Sequence record: KY000079.2
DNA length: 64,000 nucleotides
Strand: one strand, 5' to 3'
DNA from: Acinetobacter phage AM24
The notes beneath the pieces were generated by a model. That model saw nothing but the letters and a program-made list of their open reading frames with translations. It was not told the DNA's origin and searched no databases. Position 1 is the stretch's first letter, and every line of letters starts with the position of its first letter. The position numbers were made by a program, and so were the translations under genes. Positions 6,110 to 30,469 of the stretch are shown one piece after another.

Positions 6110-6346
6110 TTAGTTTTCCTCTTTAATTACTGTGCCAAGAACCTTGAGTTCACCATTTCTGTAGTTATTATATTGACCATTTGACCAATGAACCTTCCAC
6201 CATATCATATTCTCATCATCACTTTCATGTGCCACTCTAACCACTTCACCAACGATACCTCTTGGGTTGTCTAGGTAGTTTCCTTCCCAGTATGGACTTA
6301 GGGGATCTAGTGTAACTTTTGCACCAACAAATAATCTACGACTCAT
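6110..6346 (-). CDS. small paralog-family protein (copy 1 of 3)
   Basis: 78 aa. Shares GAKVT...NP.GI.G.V...WW.V.W.NG..N.Y....LKVLG with the next two genes. Confidence 0.5.
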   Translation of the reverse strand: MSRRLFVGAKVTLDPLSPYWEGNYLDNPRGIVGEVVRVAHESDDENMIWWKVHWSNGQYNNYRNGELKVLGTVIKEEN

Positions 6347-6581
6347 CGACCACCACTCCTAAAACCTTTAAGTCACCATGTTGGTAGATGTTAGCTTCAC
6401 CATTACTCCACTTAACTCCCCACCAAATTTCATCATCCTCATCATCCTCTTCAACAATACCAGTTACAACACCTGCAATATCTGATGGGTTTCTATAATA
6501 ATTCCCATAATAATTACTCTTTGAGTCAATGGTAACTTTTGCCCCAATGAACAATTTCCGATCTCCCTCTAGTATTACCAT
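6336..6581 (-). CDS. small paralog-family protein (copy 2 of 3)
   Basis: 81 aa. Same motif as copy 1 with an acidic insert (EEDDEDDE). Overlaps both neighbours. Confidence 0.5.
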   Translation of the reverse strand: MVILEGDRKLFIGAKVTIDSKSNYYGNYYRNPSDIAGVVTGIVEEDDEDDEIWWGVKWSNGEANIYQHGDLKVLGVVVDES

Positions 6582-7144
6582 GTCGGCAAGCCCTCCACAA
6601 ACTGTTTACACCAATGTACTCGACCAAGTTTCCAAGAACCACAGAAAGATATCTCTCCAAATGTTGAGAGCAATTTTACCTCAAGCTTATCTTCCCAGTC
6701 TCCATTTCTCGACATAATATCCCAACCATAAATAAAGAAGTGTTCGCCATCAAAGACCAAAGAACCAATCCCAAACGTATTGTTTATTAAGTCACGGACT
6801 TCCAATAAATCACCAACATAAAGTGGCTCACGCTCAAATAGATTGATTTTTGAGTAAGTTCCAATTCTACCTAAATGGTAAATATCTCCATGTATGTTTG
6901 TATATAGTTCTCCAAAATTATAACCTTGACCAAGAACTTTTAAATCAACCGCATCGTATGAATTTCTTTGACCATTCTCCCACTGAACTTGGTAGGGTAA
7001 ATGGCATACTTTACAACCATCCAGTTGATTTCTTGTGACTACTCCAGCTATACCTTGGGGGTTGTCGAACATACCATCATCATTCCACCATCTTGAATCT
7101 TTACTTAAGGTAACTTTAGTTCCAACCTGAATTATCTTTTCCAC
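6575..7144 (-). CDS. paralog-family protein (copy 3) with extra C-terminal domain
   Basis: 189 aa. The N-terminal 75 aa match copies 1 and 2, and about 110 aa of unknown C-terminal domain follow. Confidence 0.5.
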   Translation of the reverse strand: MEKIIQVGTKVTLSKDSRWWNDDGMFDNPQGIAGVVTRNQLDGCKVCHLPYQVQWENGQRNSYDAVDLKVLGQGYNFGELYTNIHGDIYHLGRIGTYSKINLFEREPLYVGDLLEVRDLINNTFGIGSLVFDGEHFFIYGWDIMSRNGDWEDKLEVKLLSTFGEISFCGSWKLGRVHWCKQFVEGLPTW

Positions 7145-23284: not shown

Positions 23285-23800
23285 ATGTCACAGGAACGTG
23301 AAGACTTAGAAGTTTCTTCTCAAGATACTCCAATTGGCTCTGAGTTAATGACTAATGCCCAGAAAAAACTCAAAGAAGCCCAAAAGAAAAGAGTATCTTT
23401 AGAAAAAATTATTGCTTTAACAGACGATGCTATGATTGACTCAATTCAATACATGCACCAAACAGTAAATAATCCTAAAGTAAGTCCAAATGCTCGTGTT
23501 GTTTGTGCGAATAACTTGGTTGCAATCAACCTTAAAGCTAAAAAACAACTTACAGAAGAAAAAATGGCTGAACAAATGTACAGACATAAGGAACTTGTTA
23601 TCCGTGCTGAAGCTATGAAGATTGCCCAATTGGCTGGTATAGGTCAAGAAGGTGGGGGATATGCTTCAGAAAGAACTGGGACTTTACAATTAGAATATGT
23701 AGAGAATCCAGAATATGCCGATGTTCCTACAGACCCAACATTAGCTGATGGATATGTTCCTGAATCTGGTGAAGGTCTGGGTGAGTATGAGGTTACTTAA
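23285..23800 (+). CDS. hypothetical protein (possible small terminase candidate)
   Basis: 171 aa, helical with an acidic C-terminus. No recognisable terS gene lies next to the large terminase, so this is a speculative candidate. Confidence 0.35.
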   Translation: MSQEREDLEVSSQDTPIGSELMTNAQKKLKEAQKKRVSLEKIIALTDDAMIDSIQYMHQTVNNPKVSPNARVVCANNLVAINLKAKKQLTEEKMAEQMYRHKELVIRAEAMKIAQLAGIGQEGGGYASERTGTLQLEYVENPEYADVPTDPTLADGYVPESGEGLGEYEVT

Positions 23801-23984
23801 TGATTATTTTTTAATCAATCAACACTTATTTTCACTATTTTTAAAATTATTTTTAAAATTTATTGGTTTTAGGTGTTGACATTAATAAAATATCTGGTAA
23901 TCTTAATTACATAAGCAGATTTGACATGAGATGCTTGTTTCCTTTTAGATAACCAATGACTTAAATTACCATTGGTTATCTTTT

Positions 23985-24066
23985 GTAGTAGTGCCCGAGT
24001 GGTCGAAGGGGGTGGACTGTAAATTCACTATATCACACGTTGGTTCGAATCCAACCTGCTACACCA
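23985..24066 (+). tRNA. tRNA-Tyr (anticodon GTA)
   Basis: Hand-folded cloverleaf: acceptor GTAGTAG/CTGCTAC, anticodon loop CTGTAAA, long variable arm, T-loop TTCGAAT, encoded CCA. Confidence 0.6.
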
Positions 24067-24520
24067 CAATGGTGGAAATTTTAGAGAGTGAATAACGCTG
24101 TGTGCCTATATGGTGCTACGGATACCAAGTCCAACTCTTATTCACTCTACTAAAGTTTAAGCATATTAGCGAAAGGCAAAACTCGAAAGAGATATTACGC
24201 TATGAGAAAGGGAACAATGAAATGCCGAACCTTCTCCCCTACTTGCAATGCGGTATTAGCGTCAAGTCAAAATGACAAAGTGCAAGATTGTAGACTGACT
24301 GCTAGGAAAGACTAGTAAATTTAGAGAAGTGAATGCTAAAAGCTAACCAGACCGAGAAGGGCACAAGCTGCTAGATATAAACTGGAGTTCACTTCATCTA
24401 AGTTTATGCGGAGACCTGATCGGTGTATTGAAGCAAGTGACTAGTTAAACTTGTGGATAGAGAGTGGTTTGAATCCACGTGACCCCGCTCCAAAATTTTA
24501 CTCGTTATATAGTACCTTAG

Positions 24521-24595
24521 TTCAGTGGTAGAACGCAGAACTGATAATTCTGAGGTCGATGGTTCGAAACCATCAGGTACTACCAAAATTTAATT
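24521..24595 (+). tRNA. tRNA-Ile (anticodon GAT)
   Basis: Acceptor AGTACCT/AGGTACT, D stem GTTC/GAAC, anticodon loop CTGATAA, T-loop TTCGAAA, CCA. Confidence 0.7.
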
Positions 24596-24726
24596 GAAAG
24601 ATTTATTTAAGATGTACTCTCTATTTGTCAAATTAACATCAAGTGTAATCTTACGCCACTGGTACGGCAATACCATAAGATTACATCTTAAATAGATTTT
24701 ATAGCTATTTTAAAAGTTTATTCAGG

Positions 24727-24798
24727 TCTAGTGTAGCACAACGGTAGTGCAGCAGATTGTTAATCTGTTGGTTGTTGGTTCGAATCCAGCCTCTAGAG
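24727..24798 (+). tRNA. tRNA-Asn (anticodon GTT)
   Basis: D stem GCAC/GTGC, anticodon stem GCAGA/TCTGT with loop TTGTTAA, T arm GTTGG-TTCGAAT-CCAGC. One acceptor mismatch and no encoded CCA. Confidence 0.5.
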
Positions 24799-25590
24799 CC
24801 TGAGTAAATTTTTGATGATTTGCATGAGTGTAACTGATATGGTTGTAAGTCATCAAATTAAATATTACCCTTCGGGGTATGGGTCGTGTATAACCCTTAG
24901 ATAAACTGCAAAACAGTATAAAGTCGTAACGGCAGTTATGGCGCAGAGTAAAATCTGTCAAGTACACACTCAAGGTATCATACTTATGTGGCGTAGAGCC
25001 AATCGGTGTAAACCATTTAAGTATGGGAGTGTAATGCTCCTGAGTCGATAGACAATAAGAGAACTTGAAGGTATCTAGCGAAGTTGATTGTCAAGTCAAA
25101 ACGCTGTTTACCATTGTGAGAGGTGTATAGAGTTTAACAGGTGGTGCTGAATCTCGTAGTCCTAAACCAAGTGGACAATATATGCTTGAAACATCGTGCA
25201 TGGTAAAGCACATTAGGTAGTGTGGTATTGATGGGTTCAAAAGATCTGTTAGCCACAGAGAAACCACTATCTATGCGAAAACAAATTTCAAGTTTAGGAA
25301 AAATTTAAAATTCAAAAGCGTTTCTCACGTTGGCATGAAAGGTGCTTACATAGTAATGGGTTGTCCATTTCACATTTAACCCGAAAGGTTACTTGTATTT
25401 TCATGAAAGGATTATGTTTGGTAGGCATACTAGCATAGTTTGAGTATTGGGAGAGTAATTCCAACGTCTAAGAGTGGTTAGCTATACTGACCAGCACTGA
25501 TCACTACTATATAAAGTATAGTGGATAATGAGGGAAAAATAATCCTCTCAAGGTGGTCATTTAAACGTGTAATCTCAGCGTTTTACTTGT

Positions 25591-25666
25591 GGCTCTGTAG
25601 CATAGTGGATTATGCGACTCCCTGTCTAGGAGAAAAACGCCAGTTCGAGTCTGGTCAGAGTCGCCA
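25591..25666 (+). tRNA. tRNA-Asp (anticodon GTC), tentative
   Basis: 76 nt. Acceptor GGCTCTG/CAGAGTC, D stem GCAT/ATGC, anticodon loop CTGTCTA, T arm GCCAG-TTCGAGT-CTGGT, CCA. The atypical T at position 37 lowers confidence. Confidence 0.45.
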
Positions 25667-25670
25667 ATAT

Positions 25671-25745
25671 TGTCGTATGGTGTAATGGTTAGCACAGAAG
25701 ACTTTGACTCTTCTAGTTTAGGTTCGAGTCCTAATTCGACTGCCA
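25671..25745 (+). tRNA. tRNA-Gln (anticodon TTG)
   Basis: Anticodon stem GAAGA/TCTTC with loop CTTTGAC, T arm TTAGG-TTCGAGT-CCTAA, CCA. Two acceptor mismatches. Confidence 0.5.
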
Positions 25746-25748
25746 AAT

Positions 25749-25824
25749 GGGTCACTAGCACAATGGTAGTGCAGTTGCTTTGCAAGCATCAGGTTAAGGG
25801 TTCGAGTCCCTTGTGTATCCACCA
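25749..25824 (+). tRNA. tRNA-Ala (anticodon TGC), tentative
   Basis: D stem GCAC/GTGC, anticodon loop TTTGCAA, T arm AAGGG-TTCGAGT-CCCTT. The acceptor stem pairs poorly, so it may be a pseudogene. Confidence 0.35.
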
Positions 25825-25826
25825 AT

Positions 25827-25901
25827 ATTCCTATCGAACAATGGTTAGTTCGCTGGACTTTCACTCCAGAAATCTCGGTTCAAATCCGTGTAGGAATACC
25901 A
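25827..25901 (+). tRNA. tRNA-Glu (anticodon TTC)
   Basis: Perfect acceptor ATTCCTA/TAGGAAT, D stem GAAC/GTTC, anticodon stem CTGGA/TCCAG with loop CTTTCAC, T-loop TTCAAAT, CCA. Confidence 0.7.
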
Positions 25902-25903
25902 AT

Positions 25904-25980
25904 AGGACGTTAGCTCAGTTGGTTAGAGCAAGAGCCTTTTAAGTTCGAGGTCATAGGTTCAAATCCTATACGTCCTACCA
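25904..25980 (+). tRNA. tRNA-Lys (anticodon TTT)
   Basis: Acceptor AGGACGT/ACGTCCT, D stem GCTC/GAGC, anticodon loop CTTTTAA, T arm ATAGG-TTCAAAT-CCTAT, CCA. Confidence 0.7.
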
Positions 25981-25995
25981 AATTTTGGAGTTTTT

Positions 25996-26349
25996 ATGTC
26001 AAAAAAGTTGAAACAGTTAGGTATGAGTCCTAGTACTGCACAGGGGCGATTAGTTAAAGATCTTCTTTGGGATTTTGTGGTTCGTACTGGTCAAGATAAA
26101 TGTCATCATTGTGGTGAATTGATGTGTAGGGAGACTTTCTCTATAGAACACAAGACACCTTGGTTGGACAGTGACACACCAAAAGAAACTTATTTTGATT
26201 TAAGTAATATCAGTTTTAGTCATTTGAGTTGTAACTGTCGTGCAGCCAGAAGAGGAAAATATTCTACTGACGAAGAGCGTATTGAGGCTAGAAGAAAGTC
26301 TAATCGTGAAAGTAAACGTAGGATGAAGTTAAAAGCACAAGTAGCTTAG
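25996..26349 (+). CDS. HNH homing endonuclease
   Basis: 117 aa. RBS TGGAG. Motif CHHCGE...FSIEHKTPW (HNH with Cys ligands) and a basic C-terminal tail. Embedded in the tRNA array. Confidence 0.6.
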   Translation: MSKKLKQLGMSPSTAQGRLVKDLLWDFVVRTGQDKCHHCGELMCRETFSIEHKTPWLDSDTPKETYFDLSNISFSHLSCNCRAARRGKYSTDEERIEARRKSNRESKRRMKLKAQVA

Positions 26350-26437
26350 ATGGATTAGCGTAACCCTGAAAAGGTTGAGAGGTTGGATCGTTACCAACAT
26401 TGTGCACCAAATTTTTAAAAGAGAGATTATTTTAGGA

Positions 26438-26513
26438 TTACCATAACCTAAAGGCTCGAAGGGGCGGTCTGCAACATCGTTGTTAGTGAGTTGAAGTCTC
26501 ACATGGTAATCCA
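26438..26513 (+). tRNA. tRNA-Cys (anticodon GCA)
   Basis: Acceptor TTACCAT/ATGGTAA, anticodon stem GCGGT/ATCGT with loop CTGCAAC, T arm GTGAG-TTGAAGT-CTCAC, CCA. Confidence 0.55.
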
Positions 26514-26526
26514 AAGTGATTTTTAT

Positions 26527-26614
26527 AGAGGTTAAACCAGATAGGTTCTGGGACACCCTGCTAAGGTGATCGTGTTAGAAATAGCATTCGGATCGAGACC
26601 GATGGCCTCTGCCA
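26527..26614 (+). tRNA. tRNA-Ser (anticodon GCT)
   Basis: 88 nt, class II. Anticodon loop CTGCTAA, long variable arm, 4-bp T stem with loop ATCGAGA, acceptor AGAGGTT/GGCCTCT, CCA. Confidence 0.5.
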
Positions 26615-26619
26615 AGTTT

Positions 26620-26695
26620 GATTCCTTAGCTCAATTGGTAGAGCATTTCCCTTACAAGGAAGAGGTCGTAGGTTCGAAACCTACAGGAATCACCA
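26620..26695 (+). tRNA. tRNA-Val (anticodon TAC)
   Basis: Acceptor GATTCCT/AGGAATC, D stem GCTC/GAGC, anticodon loop CTTACAA, T arm GTAGG-TTCGAAA-CCTAC, CCA. Confidence 0.7.
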
Positions 26696-26698
26696 AAT

Positions 26699-26789
26699 GG
26701 AGGAATAATCCGAGTTGGCCTAACGGATGCTGTCTTGAAAACAGTTAGGTGTAATAGCCGTGTGAGTTCGAGTCTCACTTTCTCCGCCA
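26699..26789 (+). tRNA. tRNA-Ser (anticodon TGA)
   Basis: 91 nt, class II. Anticodon stem GCTGT/ACAGT with loop CTTGAAA, 16-nt variable arm, T arm GTGAG-TTCGAGT-CTCAC, acceptor GGAGGAA/TTTCTCC, CCA. Confidence 0.6.
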
Positions 26790-26790
26790 A

Positions 26791-26864
26791 GCGTCTATAG
26801 TGTAGTGGTAACACCCTGTACTTCCAATTCAGTATCTTCGGTTCGAATCCGAATGGACGCTCCA
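26791..26864 (+). tRNA. tRNA-Gly (anticodon TCC)
   Basis: Acceptor GCGTCTA/TGGACGC, anticodon loop CTTCCAA, T arm TTCGG-TTCGAAT-CCGAA, CCA. Confidence 0.6.
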
Positions 26865-27018
26865 GATTATGTTAATGGACACTTCCTAAGGTTCTTTCTA
26901 CAGGTTCGAAACTGTTTTAAGAATTGCTGGTGCTAGGTTTAGCGTCAAGAATCATTCGAAGGGTTCTTGGGGTGGTGAGTTCGATTCTCACAGTGTTCCT
27001 CCCGATTTTAAAGTTTAT

Positions 27019-27095
27019 CTCTGTGTAGCTCAGTTTGGTAGAGCACTCGCTTTGGGAGTGAGGGGTCGTAAGTTCAATTCTTACTACAGAGACCA
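27019..27095 (+). tRNA. tRNA-Pro (anticodon TGG)
   Basis: Acceptor CTCTGTG/TACAGAG, D stem GCTC/GAGC, anticodon stem CTCGC/GTGAG with loop TTTGGGA, T arm GTAAG-TTCAATT-CTTAC, CCA. Confidence 0.65.
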
Positions 27096-27101
27096 ATTGT
27101 T

Positions 27102-27178
27102 GGGTAGTTGAAGGGAATGGCATACCTTTCACGCTTAGAACGTGAAGTTTCTGAGTTCGAGTCTCAGACTACCTACCA
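27102..27178 (+). tRNA. tRNA with anticodon TAG (Leu-decoding) but short variable arm
   Basis: Good cloverleaf: anticodon stem TCACG/CGTGA with loop CTTAGAA, T arm CTGAG-TTCGAGT-CTCAG, CCA. It has a 5-nt variable arm, whereas bacterial Leu tRNAs are class II. Confidence 0.5.
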
Positions 27179-27184
27179 AATTCT

Positions 27185-27260
27185 GGGGATATAGCCCAAC
27201 GGCAGAGGCAAGAGGTTTAAACCCTCTCAAGTTTCAGTTCGAGTCTGAATATCCCTACCA
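27185..27260 (+). tRNA. tRNA with anticodon TAA (Leu-decoding) but short variable arm
   Basis: 76 nt. Anticodon stem AGAGG/CCTCT with loop TTTAAAC, T arm TTCAG-TTCGAGT-CTGAA, acceptor GGGGATA/TATCCCT, CCA. Class-I architecture. Confidence 0.5.
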
Positions 27261-27275
27261 ATTTAGGAGTGCTAC

Positions 27276-27557
27276 ATGGAAGTATTACTTGTTAGTGATT
27301 GTAGATGCCAAGAGCGTTTTGACTTTGCAGATATTGTAAAGGATGCTCAAGAACAAGGTATTAAAATTAAATATTCATTAGTTCCTAAGAAGATATCCTA
27401 TGAAGATAGAACTTACACATTTGTTAATGTTGAAGATCTCACTAAGGATAAAAGTTGTATTGTTGGTAAGAAGTTTGATGATGTCTATTTGACACCAGAA
27501 GCTAAAGATGCTATACCTTTAGGGTTGCTATCATTTATACTTACAAGAATACGTTAA
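27276..27557 (+). CDS. hypothetical protein
   Basis: 93 aa. RBS AGGAG 7 nt upstream. Lies inside the tRNA array. Confidence 0.4.
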   Translation: MEVLLVSDCRCQERFDFADIVKDAQEQGIKIKYSLVPKKISYEDRTYTFVNVEDLTKDKSCIVGKKFDDVYLTPEAKDAIPLGLLSFILTRIR

Positions 27558-27640
27558 GGTTTAAGTCCCTACACCCTCCAAGAGCCTTCTAAGCTCTCGA
27601 CATTAAATAGGGGGAAGGTAGTCAGAGTGTTCGATTCACT

Positions 27641-28135
27641 GTGGGGACTCCATTGTTTATATCAGGAAAGGTACTCGACCTACCTTTCACTAATATGAAC
27701 TACATAGAGGTCGAGTCTGTGAAAATTGAAGTACAAAACCCTTTTAACTATAAACGTGGTTATCTCCGTACTACTAAAAGTGGTAGGAAGTTGGTTGACC
27801 TTGTGAACTCAAACAAAGATCGTACTACGATATCGTATGCTAGGTATCTGATGTGCGTGAAGGTCGGTTACATAATTAGTTCTGATTTAGAGGTTGATCA
27901 TATTGATGGTGATAGAACAAATGATGAATTGAGTAATCTACAAATTCTTTCGAAGGAAAGTCACCGAAAGAAGACTGCACTATCAAAGACTAGAAGTGTG
28001 ACAACTTTAATATGTCCACAGTGTGGTAAGGAGTTTGAAAGATTTACTAATTTAATTAAGAAAGGTTCCAACCCAAAGTGTAGTAGACGTTGTAACGCAC
28101 TGTATAATCGCTCTAATTGTGGTTGGGGTAAGTAA
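27641..28135 (+). CDS. HNH homing endonuclease (HNH_3-like)
   Basis: Motif EVDHIDGDRTNDELSNLQILSKESHRKK plus a C-terminal Cys-rich zinc ribbon (CPQCG...CSRRC). The start is GTG 27641 or ATG 27695. Confidence 0.6.
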   Translation: MGTPLFISGKVLDLPFTNMNYIEVESVKIEVQNPFNYKRGYLRTTKSGRKLVDLVNSNKDRTTISYARYLMCVKVGYIISSDLEVDHIDGDRTNDELSNLQILSKESHRKKTALSKTRSVTTLICPQCGKEFERFTNLIKKGSNPKCSRRCNALYNRSNCGWGK

Positions 28136-28150
28136 ATTAATGAGTTTTAT

Positions 28151-28225
28151 TCCGAATTAGCTCAATGGTAGAGCAGCGCTTTTGTAATGCGAAGGTTGTG
28201 TGTTCGACTCACATATTCGGAACCA
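28151..28225 (+). tRNA. tRNA-Thr (anticodon TGT)
   Basis: Acceptor TCCGAAT/ATTCGGA, D stem GCTC/GAGC, anticodon loop TTTGTAA on a weak 3-bp stem, T arm GTGTG-TTCGACT-CACAT, CCA. Confidence 0.55.
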
Positions 28226-28230
28226 ATTAA

Positions 28231-28305
28231 GGTCCTTTAGCACATACTGGTCTGTGCACCATGCTCATAACGTGGAGGATTTTGGTTCGATTCCAAAAAG
28301 GACCA
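28231..28305 (+). tRNA. tRNA-Met (anticodon CAT; elongator or Ile2-type)
   Basis: Acceptor GGTCCTT/AAGGACC, D stem GCAC/GTGC, anticodon stem CCATG/CGTGG with loop CTCATAA, T arm TTTGG-TTCGATT-CCAAA. No CCA encoded. Confidence 0.65.
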
Positions 28306-28317
28306 CTAAATTATTAT

Positions 28318-28388
28318 GGGTTGACCACTGGGTGGTGGCGAGTCTCCAAAACTTGCCTTGCTAGGTTCGATTCCTAGTCGATCTGCCA
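28318..28388 (+). tRNA. tRNA-Trp (anticodon CCA), tentative
   Basis: Anticodon stem CGAGT/ACTTG with loop CTCCAAA, T arm CTAGG-TTCGATT-CCTAG, CCA. The D arm is irregular and the acceptor has several G.U pairs. Confidence 0.45.
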
Positions 28389-28420
28389 AATAAAATGTTA
28401 AAAATAATTAAACAAAACAC

Positions 28421-28449
28421 TTGACAAATAGATTTTTAGTATTATATAT
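28421..28449 (+). promoter_or_regulatory. sigma70-like promoter followed by (TATATAA)x3
   Basis: TTGACA at 28421-28426, a 16-17-nt spacer, then TATATA. A tandem TATATAA x3 follows. Lies upstream of the last tRNA and the thioredoxin gene. Confidence 0.4.
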
Positions 28450-28481
28450 AATATATAATATATAAGCAATTAAGTTTTCAT

Positions 28482-28556
28482 AGCGAGGTAGTGTAACGGT
28501 TTGCACAGGGGACTCATAATCCTCTGGTTTGGGTTCGAATCCCAACTTCGCTTCCA
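28482..28556 (+). tRNA. tRNA with anticodon CAT (Met, initiator or Ile2-type)
   Basis: Acceptor AGCGAGG/CTTCGCT, anticodon stem GGGGA/TCCTC with loop CTCATAA, T arm TTGGG-TTCGAAT-CCCAA, CCA. Confidence 0.6.
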
Positions 28557-28576
28557 GTTTCGGAGGATCAATTATC

Positions 28577-28891
28577 GTGTATTTAGAACTAGTAGAAAAT
28601 GAAGCATTTAGCCAGATTGGTACAAACCGAAAGGTTATCTTCAAATTTGGTGCAAAATGGTGCTCTGGTTGTAAAGCGATAACTCCAGTCCTCAAAAAAT
28701 TATCTGAACAAAATCCTGATATTGTCTTTGTAGATATCGATATTGAGCAATCGAAAGGACTAGCTGAAAAATTTAATGTTCAGACCTTACCAACTTTCAT
28801 ATCTTTCCAAGAGTCCTTAAAGAAGGATACCATTGTAGGTACTCCTAAAATTACTCAGTTGAAAGAAATGATCACAAATATGCAAAAATAA
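28577..28891 (+). CDS. thioredoxin-like protein
   Basis: WCSGCK active-site motif (CxxC) with a Trx-fold-sized protein. RBS GGAGGA lies 9 nt before GTG 28577. The longer track ORF start at 28529 lies inside the tRNA. Confidence 0.6.
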   Translation: MYLELVENEAFSQIGTNRKVIFKFGAKWCSGCKAITPVLKKLSEQNPDIVFVDIDIEQSKGLAEKFNVQTLPTFISFQESLKKDTIVGTPKITQLKEMITNMQK

Positions 28892-29038
28892 TAATAAAAA
28901 TACATCGGTTCCGTTCCAAACCTTTAGTTTAAGGTTTTTCTCCAATCCCACTAACCAAATAACTGTTATGGATGACACAAGTCAATAATAGGGAATAATT
29001 AAGGTTAGTGGGTTTTCTTTTATTCAAGGAGTGTAAGT

Positions 29039-30469
29039 ATGAGTAACATATTTGCACCTTGCTCTCCAGTACAAGCGAAGCTACTTCAAAGTGATGCCAC
29101 AATCACAGTTTATGGTGGATCTATGGGTAGTGCTAAAACCTATGGAGGTCTACTAAGACACCTTCAATATGTAAATAGTCCACATTATGTTGGTTACGTA
29201 ATCCGTAAAAATGAAGTAGTTCTGAGGGCTGGTGGTGGTGCTTTTGAAGAAGCCAAAGCTTTATACAAGGCATTTGAGCCAAGAGTTAAAATCACAGAGA
29301 AACCTATGAGGTTTCGCTTTCCTTCTGGTGCTGTAATTAACTTTGCAGGTGCTGAAGATGAGAAAGCTATGGAAAAATATCGTGGTCTTAACTTAACTGG
29401 TGTAATGGTCGATGAAGGTACACAGTTATCAGAAAGACAAATTTGGTTCTTAATTTCTCGTTTGCGTAATGGTAAAGATCCAAACATTATGCCAAATATA
29501 TGGATTACATGTAACCCTGACCCTGATAGTTATTTGTTTGAATGGGTTAAGTGGTATTTATATCCTGTAGGGCATCCTCTTGCTGGAAGACCTGATAAAG
29601 ATAAGAATGGATTAAAAAGATATTTCGTATCGACTCCAGAAGGTTTAGTTTGGAGTGATAATGAACAGGAATTACTTGATAAGTATCCGCATTTATTTAC
29701 AAAAGGGACTAGACCACTAAGTTTTAGATTTATTGGTGGTACAGTTTACGATAACCCACCTCTTCTTAAGAACTCACCTCAATATCTTCAAAACCTACTC
29801 CAACAGAAAGACCGAGTAGTGCGAGAACGTGAGTTGTACGGTAACTGGTTTGCACGTAGGGAAGATTCAAGTTACTTCAACAGGTCTTGGTGTGAGATAG
29901 TTGATAAGCCTCCTGAAAGGGTCCGTAAAAGGGTTCGTTCTTGGGACTTGGCTTTCACATTACCAACTGAGACAAACCCAAACCCCGATTATACCTGTGG
30001 TGTTCGTCTAAGTAAAGATGATGAAGGTACAATCTATGTTGAAGACATGGTTCTTGAAAGGGTTGGTTCTGGGAAAATTATTGAGTTAATTGCAAAGACT
30101 GGCCTAGAAGATGCTGAGATGTTTGGTGTTGTTGAAACAACAATCCCTCAAGATGCTGGTGGTATGGCTAAATTTGCAGCTAGGGATATGGCCTCTAAGC
30201 TAAGAGAGCATGGTGTATCTCCTATTGTAGTTCCTGTAGGTAATAAAGGCAAGCTCGTTCGTTTTATTCCATTCTCAGGTGCAGCACAAAATAAACATGT
30301 GAAGATTGTACGTGGTGATTGGAATGCAGCCTTCTTTCATCAGTTAGAAGCTTTTGGAAGTGGAAATAAGGCTGTGCACGATGATGCTGTCGATGCTGTT
30401 GCTGATGCTTATAAAAGAGTAGCAGAAAATAGAACGATTGACTATGCCATCGACTTAGCAGTTTTATAA
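29039..30469 (+). CDS. terL: terminase large subunit
   Basis: 476 aa. N-terminal ATPase Walker A (VYGGSMGSAKT), Walker B (GVMVDEG) and C-terminal nuclease-like acidic residues. Sits immediately upstream of the portal gene. Confidence 0.8.
   Translation: MSNIFAPCSPVQAKLLQSDATITVYGGSMGSAKTYGGLLRHLQYVNSPHYVGYVIRKNEVVLRAGGGAFEEAKALYKAFEPRVKITEKPMRFRFPSGAVINFAGAEDEKAMEKYRGLNLTGVMVDEGTQLSERQIWFLISRLRNGKDPNIMPNIWITCNPDPDSYLFEWVKWYLYPVGHPLAGRPDKDKNGLKRYFVSTPEGLVWSDNEQELLDKYPHLFTKGTRPLSFRFIGGTVYDNPPLLKNSPQYLQNLLQQKDRVVRERELYGNWFARREDSSYFNRSWCEIVDKPPERVRKRVRSWDLAFTLPTETNPNPDYTCGVRLSKDDEGTIYVEDMVLERVGSGKIIELIAKTGLEDAEMFGVVETTIPQDAGGMAKFAARDMASKLREHGVSPIVVPVGNKGKLVRFIPFSGAAQNKHVKIVRGDWNAAFFHQLEAFGSGNKAVHDDAVDAVADAYKRVAENRTIDYAIDLAVL

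Follow-up and report, generated by a model that had tools for sequence, protein, structure and literature searches.

The 64,000-nt stretch of Acinetobacter phage AM24 analyzed here (KY000079.2; hereafter, the window) contains a crowded interval, positions 23985–28556, which raises the question of whether an array of tRNA genes accounts for all that it encodes. The phage, a lytic myophage of Acinetobacter baumannii with a genome of ~98 kb, belongs to the Bestia/Herod/YMC13-03-R2096 group, and the interval is a tRNA gene cluster, a feature type already known, located 3′ of lysis-region genes and 5′ of a thioredoxin-terminase module. The preliminary description of this DNA, a dense tRNA array interleaved with two HNH endonuclease genes, a small ORF and a thioredoxin, in a pattern known from large lytic phages, was right in its core but incomplete. 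It overlooked a GOLLD RNA that takes up ~720 nt of the interval and is not tRNA at all, and what the leftover gaps contain is structured RNA of other kinds, not ordinary tRNA. The island consists of 18 canonical and 3 probable non-canonical tRNAs, the ~720-nt GOLLD, at least two further tRNA-shaped RNAs, and three mRNAs (two free-standing HNH genes and a 93-residue ORF). The island itself is ordinary and known, while two of the RNAs inside it are modestly novel.

Sister phages in GenBank (Bestia, Herod, Mithridates, YMC13/03/R2096, P577 and Ab15) share the gene order and 95–98% identical blocks with the window, as well as its flanks: a cell-wall hydrolase upstream, and thioredoxin and terminase downstream. 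The tRNAs of their arrays are annotated; their records carry no annotation of GOLLD, of the 85-nt and 88-nt RNAs described below, or of Cys, Ser-GCU or Trp genes. The array is highly mosaic, with only 72% of the interval covered by the best relative. The mosaic of the window is unique, with the first HNH gene at the relatives' tRNA-His site and the second between the 88-nt RNA and tRNA-Thr. We consider it likely that the whole represents a stable-RNA island of a lytic phage, which would be processed from precursors, support nearly self-sufficient decoding, encode a GOLLD nanocage and harbor selfish HNH genes.

Canonical tRNA genes and decoding capacity

With default settings, ARAGORN finds 18 tRNAs, all on the plus strand (as are all features below), and none in the rest of the 64-kb window; their span is identical to the limits first given for the island, 23985–28556. 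A covariance scan, which the preliminary description had named as the check on its cloverleaves, upholds nearly all of these calls: the Rfam tRNA model accepts 17 of the 18 (42–73 bits; gathering score 29). The one call outside the accepted set is the class II tRNA-Ser(UGA), which has a long variable arm (26699–26789) and is annotated in relatives.

The island's first gene is an 82-nt tRNA-Tyr(GUA) (23985–24066; 55.3 bits), followed by tRNA-Ile(GAU) (24511–24585; 72.7 bits) and tRNA-Asn(GUU) (24727–24800; 65.8 bits). Nine nucleotides past the GOLLD 3′ end, tRNA-Asp(GUC) (25591–25666) opens a run with tRNA-Gln(UUG) (25671–25745), tRNA-Ala(UGC) (25749–25821), tRNA-Glu(UUC) (25827–25901) and tRNA-Lys(UUU) (25904–25980). 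Farther downstream are tRNA-Phe(GAA) (26335–26409; 42.2 bits), tRNA-Val(UAC) (26620–26695; 72.9 bits), tRNA-Ser(UGA), tRNA-Gly(UCC) (26791–26864) and tRNA-Pro(UGG) (27019–27095). Leucine is served by two tRNAs with discriminator A73 and no long variable arm, a 77-nt tRNA-Leu(UAG) (27102–27178; 48 bits) and a 76-nt tRNA-Leu(UAA) (27185–27260; 54.5 bits). The array ends with tRNA-Thr(UGU) (28151–28225) and two tRNAs with a CAU anticodon, one for Met or Ile2 with no encoded CCA (28231–28306) and, as the last gene, one for Met, possibly of the initiator type (28482–28556).

Seventeen of the 20 tRNAs called by hand are thus canonical, namely every gene just given other than tRNA-Phe, and the spacing of 1–6 nt reported for many neighbors is correct; the remaining three (Cys-GCA, Ser-GCU and Trp-CCA) are called by ARAGORN only when its thresholds are relaxed. 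The hand search had listed Phe, His, Arg and class II Leu tRNAs as missing and possibly hidden in the gaps. This was true of Phe, which is present. Arg is found only as the non-canonical 88-nt UCU RNA, Leu is accounted for by the two short-armed tRNAs, and tRNA-His is absent from the array, its site in relatives being held here by the first HNH gene.

We saw no convincing internal terminators in the island, and a scan for sigma-70-like promoters returned 9 sites, fewer than the 15.8 in shuffled sequence. The island would be transcribed as long precursors, which host tRNA-processing enzymes would then cut.

In general, each codon box has a single tRNA in the set, and those for four-codon boxes have U34. 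The set reads 72% of phage codons under strict wobble rules, or 95% if a U34 tRNA can read all four codons of its box, and may provide the phage with nearly self-sufficient decoding during infection. Alternatively, the tRNAs could serve only for classical codon compensation, rather than for self-sufficiency or as a guard against depletion or cleavage of host tRNAs. Third codon positions of the phage genes are rich in A and T (GC3 28%), the U34 and G34 tRNAs of the array favor A/U-ending codons, and compensation is the traditional view of phage tRNAs, for which a counter-defense role has also been proposed (PMC10264068). However, nearly every box is covered once, including those of abundant codons, so that the set resembles a minimal complete decoder more than a selective supplement. 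Moreover, the GC content of the phage (37.5%) is near that of A. baumannii (~39%), which makes a strong codon mismatch between phage and host unlikely. We therefore regard compensation alone as possible, but rather doubtful.

Non-canonical tRNAs and tRNA-shaped RNAs

Five RNAs in the island, three probable tRNAs and two tRNA-shaped RNAs, fail the standard tRNA models. The probable tRNAs are a tRNA-Cys(GCA) whose D stem is degenerate (26438–26513; ARAGORN -ps90), a class II tRNA-Ser(GCU) whose D arm is abnormal (26527–26614; ARAGORN -ps80 only) and a 71-nt tRNA-Trp(CCA) with a minimal D arm (28318–28388; ARAGORN -ps). The Rfam tRNA model matches none of the three, the Trp region giving only a sub-threshold tRNA-Sec match (25.7 bits). 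Apart from the D arm, each forms its acceptor, anticodon and T arms well, encodes the CCA and has the discriminator base expected for its identity (U73 in Cys, G73 in Ser-GCU and Trp). The Cys gene has an 89% identical copy in Acibel004, where it is annotated as tRNA-Cys, and a 91% identical copy in L006 with a compensatory change in the T stem. The minimum free energy (MFE) fold of tRNA-Ser(GCU) is a five-arm cloverleaf (z = −2.5); that of tRNA-Trp is also a cloverleaf, and an identical copy is present in Mithridates.

The two tRNA-shaped RNAs are unannotated and supported by covariation. The first (24408–24492) is an 85-nt cloverleaf with a 3′ UCCA and an invariant 10-nt loop, GACUAGUUAA. 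Its 12 distinct copies are all 85 nt long, with 92.9% of cells paired (34–50% when slid) and compensatory changes at 7 pairs; it has no Rfam match. The second (27565–27652) is an 88-nt non-canonical tRNA(UCU)-like RNA, in which a long-range helix replaces the D arm and encloses the anticodon hairpin; the T arm is present and the CCA is encoded. It is called neither by default ARAGORN nor by Rfam. Four divergent types, each 88 nt, come from four phage lineages, including a marine Zobellviridae phage; 95.5% of cells are paired, 15 of the 22 pairs show compensatory changes, and the loop and bulge sequences are invariant. Both RNAs would be freed, like the tRNAs, by host tRNA processing.

We found no published description of either RNA, and consider them modestly novel. 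Non-standard tRNAs are also known from mitochondria, where D arms may be lacking, and as 8/4 or 9/3 cloverleaf tRNAs (PMC7609411, PMC5389517). The 88-nt RNA, Cys, Ser-GCU and Trp likewise keep acceptor, anticodon and T arms and a CCA end, with a non-standard D arm. A term search of a review on non-canonical tRNAs returned no phages and no counterpart of this architecture, an anticodon hairpin within a long-range helix that has a conserved bulge of 12 nt.

A further element of 122 nt (26877–26998) is tRNA-like but lacks a CCA. Its predicted MFE fold (z = −1.5) is closed by an outer stem of 7 bp and includes an extra hairpin, a D-like hairpin, a 9-bp stem capped by a loop of 8 nt, and a T arm, GUGAG-UUCGAUU-CUCAC; copies are found only in near-identical relatives, and it is absent from Mithridates.

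These six elements (Cys, Ser-GCU, Trp and the 85-, 88- and 122-nt RNAs) might instead be functionless tRNA pseudogenes in decay, or scars of recombination. Such an origin would suit the failure of ARAGORN at default settings and of Rfam's tRNA model to recognize them, the mosaicism of the array, an A·C mismatch in the window's 85-nt RNA at a position paired in other copies, and the missing CCA and divergent homologs of the 122-nt element. It is nevertheless improbable in light of the covariation: all four helices of the 88-nt RNA are held through 15 compensatory pairs across the four lineages, and the 85-nt RNA keeps its length, seven covarying pairs and invariant loop in 12 copies. The Cys gene combines the T-stem compensation in L006 and the annotation in Acibel004 with the identity set of U73 and GCA.

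The spacers also contain long hairpins. Hairpin hp1 (24076–24159; z = −5.1; inverted repeat I1) has an AU-rich stem of ~20 bp and belongs to an indel-polymorphic 444-nt spacer that YMC13 lacks. In hp2 (24318–24405; z = −3.2), alignment between phages shows a conserved stem and a hypervariable interior. A third is located in the Ile-Asn spacer (24598–24700; z = −3.7; inverted repeat I2).

Endonuclease genes and other ORFs

The two HNH genes, small ORF and thioredoxin reported inside or adjoining the array are all confirmed by Pfam, PHROG and relatives. HNH gene 1 (25996–26349; 117 residues) is free-standing and matches phrog_23251 (E = 3.6e-37), with no Pfam match. It fills the Lys-Phe interval exactly, and its final 15 nt overlap tRNA-Phe; one junction of the cassette is precisely where tRNA-Lys ends, the other where tRNA-Phe starts. 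All five relatives compared lack it and have tRNA-His at the site; its closest homologs belong to phages of Pseudomonas, Pectobacterium and Aeromonas, with identities no higher than 73%. HNH gene 2 (27695–28135; 146 residues), also free-standing, matches Pfam HNH_3 (E = 2e-7) and phrog_14913 (E = 5.8e-62); its start is the ATG at 27695, not the GTG at 27641 given initially. It is missing from relatives at the equivalent site, and a 78% identical gene in Saclayvirus 14/CRR8 is likewise downstream of the 88-nt RNA. Across the group, the Arg/Thr junction holds four different endonuclease genes: the window has HNH gene 2, Bestia a different HNH_3, Herod a PD-(D/E)XK and Ab15 a gene annotated as HNH.

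Judged from sequence distribution, this presence and absence, together with the four junction endonucleases, fits the pattern of mobile homing endonucleases. The HNH genes would then be selfish mobile elements, whose proteins cut endonuclease-free alleles of co-infecting relatives, with repair copying the genes in; such homing, along with recombination at tRNA borders, may have produced the mosaic array. In some phages, an HNH protein is required for terminase activity, and both genes here are 1–3 kb from the terminase gene (29039–30469), so they could be domesticated, for example as packaging nucleases. We find this very unlikely, since viable phages with 95–98% identity carry neither gene at these positions, unrelated endonuclease families fill the equivalent junction in sister phages, and the homologs are scattered among phages of many hosts.

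The island has a parallel in phage T4, whose cluster of 8 tRNAs is co-transcribed and processed by host RNase P, and includes the small stable RNAs C and D of unknown function; the free-standing homing endonuclease SegB, of the GIY-YIG family, drives its preferential inheritance. The window resembles this cluster in combining tRNAs, free-standing endonuclease genes and extra small RNAs, but differs in having HNH rather than GIY-YIG endonucleases, more tRNAs, and a GOLLD, which T4 lacks.

The 93-residue ORF (27276–27557) is conserved (phrog_37672, E = 9e-64) and annotated in all relatives. The 104-residue thioredoxin (28577–28891; PF00085, E = 5e-19) has a WCSGC motif and a GTG start preceded by GGAGGA, and its length equals that of the annotated thioredoxins of relatives.

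The GOLLD RNA between tRNA-Asn and tRNA-Asp

The largest gap of the array, 790 nt between tRNA-Asn and tRNA-Asp, contains a complete two-domain GOLLD RNA of ~720 nt (~24861–25581). Its conserved 3′ domain (25213–25581) spans the full Rfam model RF02032 (positions 1–416) with 214.7 bits (E = 2e-59; gathering score 150). The 5′ domain (24861–25212, with an approximate 5′ boundary) is conserved with the copy in an A. johnsonii phage. This domain is homologous to those of other GOLLD RNAs and covaries: compensatory changes occur in 33 of 49 predicted pairs, and of 111 IMG/VR GOLLD loci, 28 have a collinear match to its profile on the 5′ side of the 3′ domain. A family profile that includes the Acinetobacter domain matches the 5′ domain of env-38 GOLLD with E = 5e-48; the link needs intermediate environmental sequences, as the Acinetobacter-only profile gives E = 0.36. 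That the gap works as DNA, for example as a replication origin, is hardly credible: a neighboring non-coding stretch is labeled "putative replication origin" in the record of vB_AciJM_313, but the label spans tRNA genes and not the GOLLD copy (L006, 3763–5067 versus 6288–6671), while the gap scores 65 bits over threshold with a structure-aware covariance model and its 5′ half shows compensatory changes of the RNA type.

GOLLD is found at the equivalent site in four of five relatives, as well as in the distant A. johnsonii phage. Mithridates lacks it, indicating that it is dispensable. Since a supplementary alignment published in 2025 (PMC12286853) includes the 3′ domains from YMC13/03/R2096, P577, Bestia and Herod as rows, the GOLLD here is already known, though unannotated in GenBank. 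The 3′ end of the RNA may be set by RNase P when it releases the 5′ end of tRNA-Asp, which begins 9 nt farther on. Of 85 non-redundant IMG/VR GOLLD loci, 18 have a tRNA that starts 3–16 nt past the 3′ end of GOLLD; in about half of the environmental loci, the stretch retrieved contains no tRNA, so tRNA-dependent maturation is not universal.

GOLLD has been described as a 14-mer nanocage, encoded by phages near tRNA islands and with no known function (PMC12286853). By homology to the env-38 RNA solved by cryo-EM (Kretsch et al. 2025, PMC12286853), the window's RNA would be predicted to fold into a homo-oligomeric nanocage. The two share the 3′ domain at full model length, a 5′ domain of ~350–400 nt, an A-rich linker and a phage site adjoining tRNAs; the window's copy is shorter (~720 versus 833 nt), and its linker contains no tRNA, unlike that of the comparison GOLLD (PMC12286853). 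A tRNA cluster, GOLLD and HNH gene also co-occur in Mycobacterium (Behra et al. 2019, PMC6582537), where horizontally acquired arrays have, like the window, the GOLLD gene inside a large tRNA cluster with an HNH gene (Morgado et al. 2020, cited therein). Those arrays are chromosomal or plasmid-borne, occur in Actinobacteria and have a pseudo-tRNA inside GOLLD, whereas the array in the window belongs to a lytic phage genome with a gammaproteobacterial host.

The tRNA array and its relatives

At default settings, ARAGORN identifies 18 tRNA genes in the 64-kb window, all on the + strand between 23985 and 28556, and none outside this interval. The first and the last of these genes coincide exactly with the limits of the array in the preliminary description, which had been obtained by hand folding and contained 20 tRNAs. 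Seventeen of the 18 genes pass the Rfam tRNA model (RF00005) with scores of 42-73 bits, compared to a gathering score of 29, and most of the hand-drawn cloverleaves are thus not rejected by a covariance model. The 18th gene, the class II tRNA-Ser-UGA, is called by ARAGORN and is also annotated in related phages. Among the 20 hand-folded tRNAs, 17 are canonical, and Trp-CCA, Cys-GCA and Ser-GCU are detected only at a lowered ARAGORN threshold. The spacings of 1-6 nt between tRNAs are correct. tRNA-Phe(GAA), which had been reported as missing, is present at 26335-26409 (+). The interpretation of the region as a tRNA array was right but incomplete, the largest gap containing a GOLLD RNA (a large RNA, Rfam RF02032) that had been missed.

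The region represents a known type of feature, a tRNA island of a phage in which mobile endonuclease genes are interspersed and a GOLLD is enclosed. Close relatives of it are on record. The interval matches the sister phages Bestia, Ab15, Herod, YMC13/03/R2096 (YMC13), P577 and Mithridates piecewise at 95-98% identity. Genomes of the A. baumannii relatives are ~97-102 kb in size, and the best of them covers 72% of the interval. The common gene order is cell-wall hydrolase, a hypothetical gene, tRNA array, thioredoxin and large terminase subunit. Mapped block by block, the arrays prove to be mosaics, in which tRNA modules are present, absent or exchanged. The tRNAs are annotated in the GenBank records of the relatives, so the array as such is routine. 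In PMC11126041, the only relevant paper found for Bestia, Herod and Mithridates, the word "tRNA" is absent by term count.

The tRNA set serves each codon box with a single tRNA, which has U34 for four-codon boxes and G34 for NNY boxes. In the 52 open reading frames of the window (GC 37.5%, GC3 28%), it reads 72% of the codons under strict wobble rules, and 95% if U34 reads whole boxes. The uncovered codons are His CAY, Arg CGN and Ile AUA, the last unless one of the two CAU tRNAs is of the Ile2 type. The set looks like a near-minimal complete decoder. As far as codon usage on the phage side goes, such a decoder would fit ideas of self-sufficiency or counter-defence (PMC10264068) no less well than it would fit selective codon compensation.

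A sigma-70 scan of 23300-29200 found fewer promoter-like sites than shuffled sequences (9 vs 15.8), and the only terminator-like matches in the same region fall within tRNA anticodon arms. Two annotation artefacts were noticed in the relatives: small "hypothetical protein" CDSs lie over GOLLD and tRNA genes in Ab15 (L002 2719-3089 and neighbours), and a seven-tRNA stretch of the A. johnsonii phage vB_AciJM_313 (L006 3763-5067) is labelled "putative replication origin".

A GOLLD RNA between tRNA-Asn and tRNA-Asp

The largest unresolved stretch of the array extends for 790 nt from tRNA-Asn to tRNA-Asp. Residues 25213-25581 (+) match the Rfam GOLLD model over its entire length (positions 1-416 of 416) with 214.7 bits, compared to a gathering score of 150 (E = 2e-59). 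This model spans the conserved 3' domain only. The ~350 nt preceding it, ~24861-25212 (+), were assigned to the 5' domain by conservation, collinear profile matches and covariation. This region is conserved as well as the 3' domain in the distant phage vB_AciJM_313, where GOLLD is also located within a tRNA array. Of 111 environmental GOLLD loci from IMG/VR, 28 contain a collinear match to a 5'-domain profile that directly precedes the 3' domain. Compensatory changes occur in 33 of the 49 predicted pairs in a 20-sequence alignment. The profile of this alignment matches residues 3-410 of env-38 (E = 5e-48), which form the 5' "cap" domain of a GOLLD RNA whose 14-mer nanocage was solved by cryo-EM (Kretsch et al. 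2025, PMC12286853). A profile restricted to Acinetobacter 5' domains has no significant match to env-38 (E = 0.36), so that the link between the two runs through intermediates. The two-domain architecture of GOLLD, with a less conserved 5' domain of ~400 nt before the 3' domain, is present here.

GOLLD RNAs are phage-encoded, are often found near tRNA islands and have no known function; assembly into a homo-14-mer nanocage and induction during lysis are known for env-38 and L. brevis (PMC12286853). A tRNA cluster, GOLLD and HNH endonuclease genes also occur together in Mycobacterium (PMC6582537). In this lytic Acinetobacter phage, GOLLD likewise lies beside tRNAs, with tRNA-Asn 60 nt upstream and tRNA-Asp 9 nt downstream. 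The 49 nt directly after tRNA-Asn, which are outside GOLLD, are an indel and are missing in Ab15 and YMC13. GOLLD occupies the same place in Bestia, Ab15, YMC13 and Herod. It is missing from Mithridates and is therefore dispensable.

The close proximity of tRNA-Asp suggests a maturation route, in which RNase P cleavage of the downstream tRNA would generate the 3' end of GOLLD. Such a route is plausible and would be recurrent, since a same-strand tRNA starts 3-16 nt past the GOLLD 3' end in 18 of 85 non-redundant environmental IMG/VR loci. About half of the environmental GOLLD loci are without a nearby tRNA.

No GOLLD annotation is present in any of the GenBank records of relatives inspected, including that of vB_AciJM_313. 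The RNA is not new to Acinetobacter phages, since the 3' domains of YMC13, P577, Bestia and Herod are among the rows of the supplementary alignment of Kretsch et al. 2025 (PMC12286853). No paper was found that discusses these sister-phage copies. GOLLD here is thus known biology left unannotated: ~720 nt in A. baumannii phages that are therapy candidates encode a GOLLD, an RNA family that counts among the few natural ones for which a cage exceeding the ribosome in size is known. The culturable lytic phages, the GOLLD-less sibling Mithridates and the tRNA adjoining the GOLLD 3' end provide a tractable system. The interest of the feature, which is modest, is raised somewhat by this sibling, by the current attention to GOLLD and by two covariation-supported RNAs elsewhere in the array.

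Probable homing endonucleases and turnover within the array

Two HNH genes, a small open reading frame and a thioredoxin had been described in the array, and database searches bear out all four. HNH#1 (25996-26349, +) matches phrog_23251 (HNH endonuclease, E = 3.6e-37); it has no Pfam match, and its translation shows a CHHC...EH...N...HLSCN motif. HNH#2 matches both phrog_14913 (E = 5.8e-62) and Pfam HNH_3 (31 bits, cut-off 24.8). Its start is ATG 27695 and not GTG 27641 as previously assigned, so that the gene spans 27695-28135 (+). The small open reading frame encodes 93 residues and falls into a conserved PHROG without an assigned function. The thioredoxin (28577-28891, +) matches PF00085 with 68.6 bits (cut-off 23.5, E = 5e-19) and has a CxxC active site, WCSGC in the translation.

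Both HNH cassettes are intergenic and are absent from close relatives whose flanks are 95-98% identical, a location and a presence/absence polymorphism typical of free-standing homing endonucleases. HNH#1 spans exactly the region from the CCA end of tRNA-Lys to the first base of tRNA-Phe. Bestia, YMC13 and Ab15 have tRNA-His and a spacer at this position; tRNA-His, correctly reported as not found, is missing because HNH#1 has replaced it together with the spacer. The closest homologues of HNH#1 share at most 73% identity with it and come from phages that infect Pseudomonas, Pectobacterium, Aeromonas and other hosts. The last 15 nt of the HNH#1 reading frame (26335-26349), including its TAG stop, overlap the 5' end of tRNA-Phe, whose first base marks the right-hand junction of the cassette.

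The junction between the Arg and Thr positions of the array contains four different endonuclease genes across the group: HNH#2 in the window, an unannotated HNH_3 paralogue (43% identical) in Bestia, a PD-(D/E)XK endonuclease in Herod and an annotated HNH endonuclease in Ab15. Such a pattern is the mark that free-standing homing endonucleases leave when they turn over at a hot spot, and from it we infer cleavage and homing by these enzymes. The junction is a natural experiment in homing-endonuclease turnover in near-identical genomes.

No intron family was detected in the window with Rfam. Between thioredoxin and terminase, where the window has neither, YMC13 (L003 7338-7607 and 7723-7945) and Herod (L005 6610-6879) carry group I introns (Rfam, 79-97 bits) and a NUMOD4-HNH gene.

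tRNA-shaped RNAs and other elements of the spacers

Standard tRNA finders under-report this island: five tRNA-shaped RNAs are missed, two of which have covariation support. The first of these two, an 88-nt RNA with a UCU anticodon, is located at 27565-27652 (+). Four divergent versions, all exactly 88 nt long, are found in the window group, in Saclayvirus 14/CRR8, in MD-2021a/phiAB441 and in a marine Zobellviridae phage (further copies at L137 ~1493-1580, L138 ~793-880 and L139 1492-1579). Common to all are an acceptor stem of 7 bp, a long-range helix of 5 bp, a T arm and a terminal CCA. The long-range helix takes the place of the D arm and surrounds both the anticodon hairpin and a 12-nt bulge that does not vary; the anticodon loop, CUUCUAA, is likewise invariant and is of the Arg type. 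Within this structure, 95.5% of the cells pair, compared to 33-53% when the partners are slid, and both-sided, compensatory changes affect 15 of the 22 pairs across the four phage lineages. The reading of 27565-27652 as a degenerate tRNA-Arg pseudogene was rejected in view of these 15 pairs in divergent copies. The RNA is not called by ARAGORN at default settings or by the Rfam tRNA model; ARAGORN with introns allowed, in tmRNA mode and in mitochondrial mode fails as well. It is annotated in none of the records that carry it.

The place of the 88-nt RNA in the array is taken in Mithridates, Ab15 and Herod by a tRNA-Arg(UCU) that is canonical and unrelated to it. An HNH gene follows the RNA at a distance of 43-75 nt in three lineages; the HNH genes concerned are unrelated to one another and come from different families. 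One possibility is that the 88-nt RNA is an endonuclease-resistant replacement allele, carried within a homing cassette whose target is the canonical tRNA-Arg gene.

The second RNA is an 85-nt cloverleaf at 24408-24492 (+). It has a UCCA end and a 10-nt loop, GACUAGUUAA, which is invariant and includes the palindrome ACUAGU. Twelve distinct copies, all exactly 85 nt, were collected from several Acinetobacter phage groups and IMG/VR contigs (loci L001, L002, L004, L005, L128 and L130-L136). In these copies, 92.9% of the cells pair, compared to 34-50% in slid registers, and seven pairs covary. The RNA belongs to no Rfam family and falls below default tRNA detection. One variant is read by ARAGORN, with introns allowed and at a low threshold, as a tRNA-Asn whose anticodon loop carries a 3-nt insert. 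In ~93-kb Acinetobacter phages, the 85-nt RNA is located in a non-coding gap upstream of hydrolase and terminase, without a large tRNA array. The 85-nt RNA begins with 20 nt (24408-24427, GCGGAGACCTGATCGGTGTA) that share 80% identity with residues 24991-25010 (GCGTAGAGCCAATCGGTGTA), a conserved block within the 5' domain of GOLLD, and this likeness may be due to chance.

No description of either RNA was found in the literature searched, which is no proof of novelty; a term search of one review of non-canonical tRNAs gave no mention of phages. Strict-pattern searches for both RNAs returned nothing from GTDB genomes and almost nothing new from IMG/VR, and it looks as if either the families are narrow or the patterns are too strict. 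That the two RNAs represent previously undescribed functional families of tRNA-shaped RNA, rather than pseudogenes, is a tentative proposal that we hold with rather less than even confidence. As such, they might act as unconventional decoders, or as decoys evading host defences that target tRNAs.

The three hand-folded tRNAs with non-canonical features, Trp-CCA (28318-28388, +), Cys-GCA (26438-26513, +) and Ser-GCU (26527-26614, +), are recovered by ARAGORN with -ps, -ps90 and -ps80, respectively, and do not match the Rfam tRNA model. Since the -ps80 setting also yields evident false positives, all three require other support. The acceptor, anticodon and T arms are intact in each of them, and the CCA is encoded. 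The D arm is abnormal in all three and departs from the standard form, a 3-4 bp stem with a loop containing G18G19 before the anticodon arm: it consists of a 4-bp stem and a 3-nt loop in Trp, of a 5-bp stem and a 5-nt loop in Ser-GCU, and its stem is reduced to ~2 Watson-Crick pairs in Cys. The cloverleaves of Ser-GCU and Trp are obtained by energy folding alone. The record of phage Acibel004 lists the Cys gene as tRNA-Cys, and a distant copy of the gene has a compensatory change in the T stem. The discriminator bases (G73 in Trp, U73 in Cys, G73 in Ser, A73 in Leu) are as expected for the predicted identities, an agreement that is only suggestive.

tRNA-Leu-UAG (27102-27178) and tRNA-Leu-UAA (27185-27260) are 76-77 nt long with A73, and are without the long variable arm usual for bacterial tRNA-Leu. 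Short Leu-UAG tRNAs of 72-78 nt are frequent in environmental GOLLD-linked arrays from IMG/VR (L008, L016, L024, L040, L051 and others), which rules out that such tRNAs are peculiar to AM24. One short tRNA-Leu is labelled "tRNA-OTHER/pseudo" in the RefSeq record of YMC13.

A 122-nt tRNA-like element is located between tRNA-Gly and tRNA-Pro (26877-26998, +). Its predicted fold comprises an outer stem of 7 bp, an additional hairpin of 44 nt, a D-like hairpin with GG in its loop, a stem of 9 bp closed by an 8-nt loop (AUUCGAAG) and a T arm of canonical appearance; CCA is absent. The element is absent from Mithridates, and all known copies are at least 97% identical.

The 444-nt spacer between tRNA-Tyr and tRNA-Ile is unlikely to be a single large structured RNA, since the z-score of the whole spacer is only -1.8; it is made up of two long hairpins and the 85-nt RNA. 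Three long AU-rich hairpins (24076-24159, 24318-24405 and 24598-24700), with stems of ~19-20 bp and z-scores of -3.2 to -5.1, occur in indel-polymorphic spacers that are entirely missing from YMC13. In the second of them, the stem is conserved and the interior varies among phages. A core of ~45 nt just upstream of this hairpin (~24293-24343; TGACTGCTAGGAAAGACTAG.AAATTTAGAGAAGTGAAT) has counterparts of 88-97% identity in unrelated ~45-kb Obolenskvirus-type phages, located there within a non-coding gap of 1 kb.
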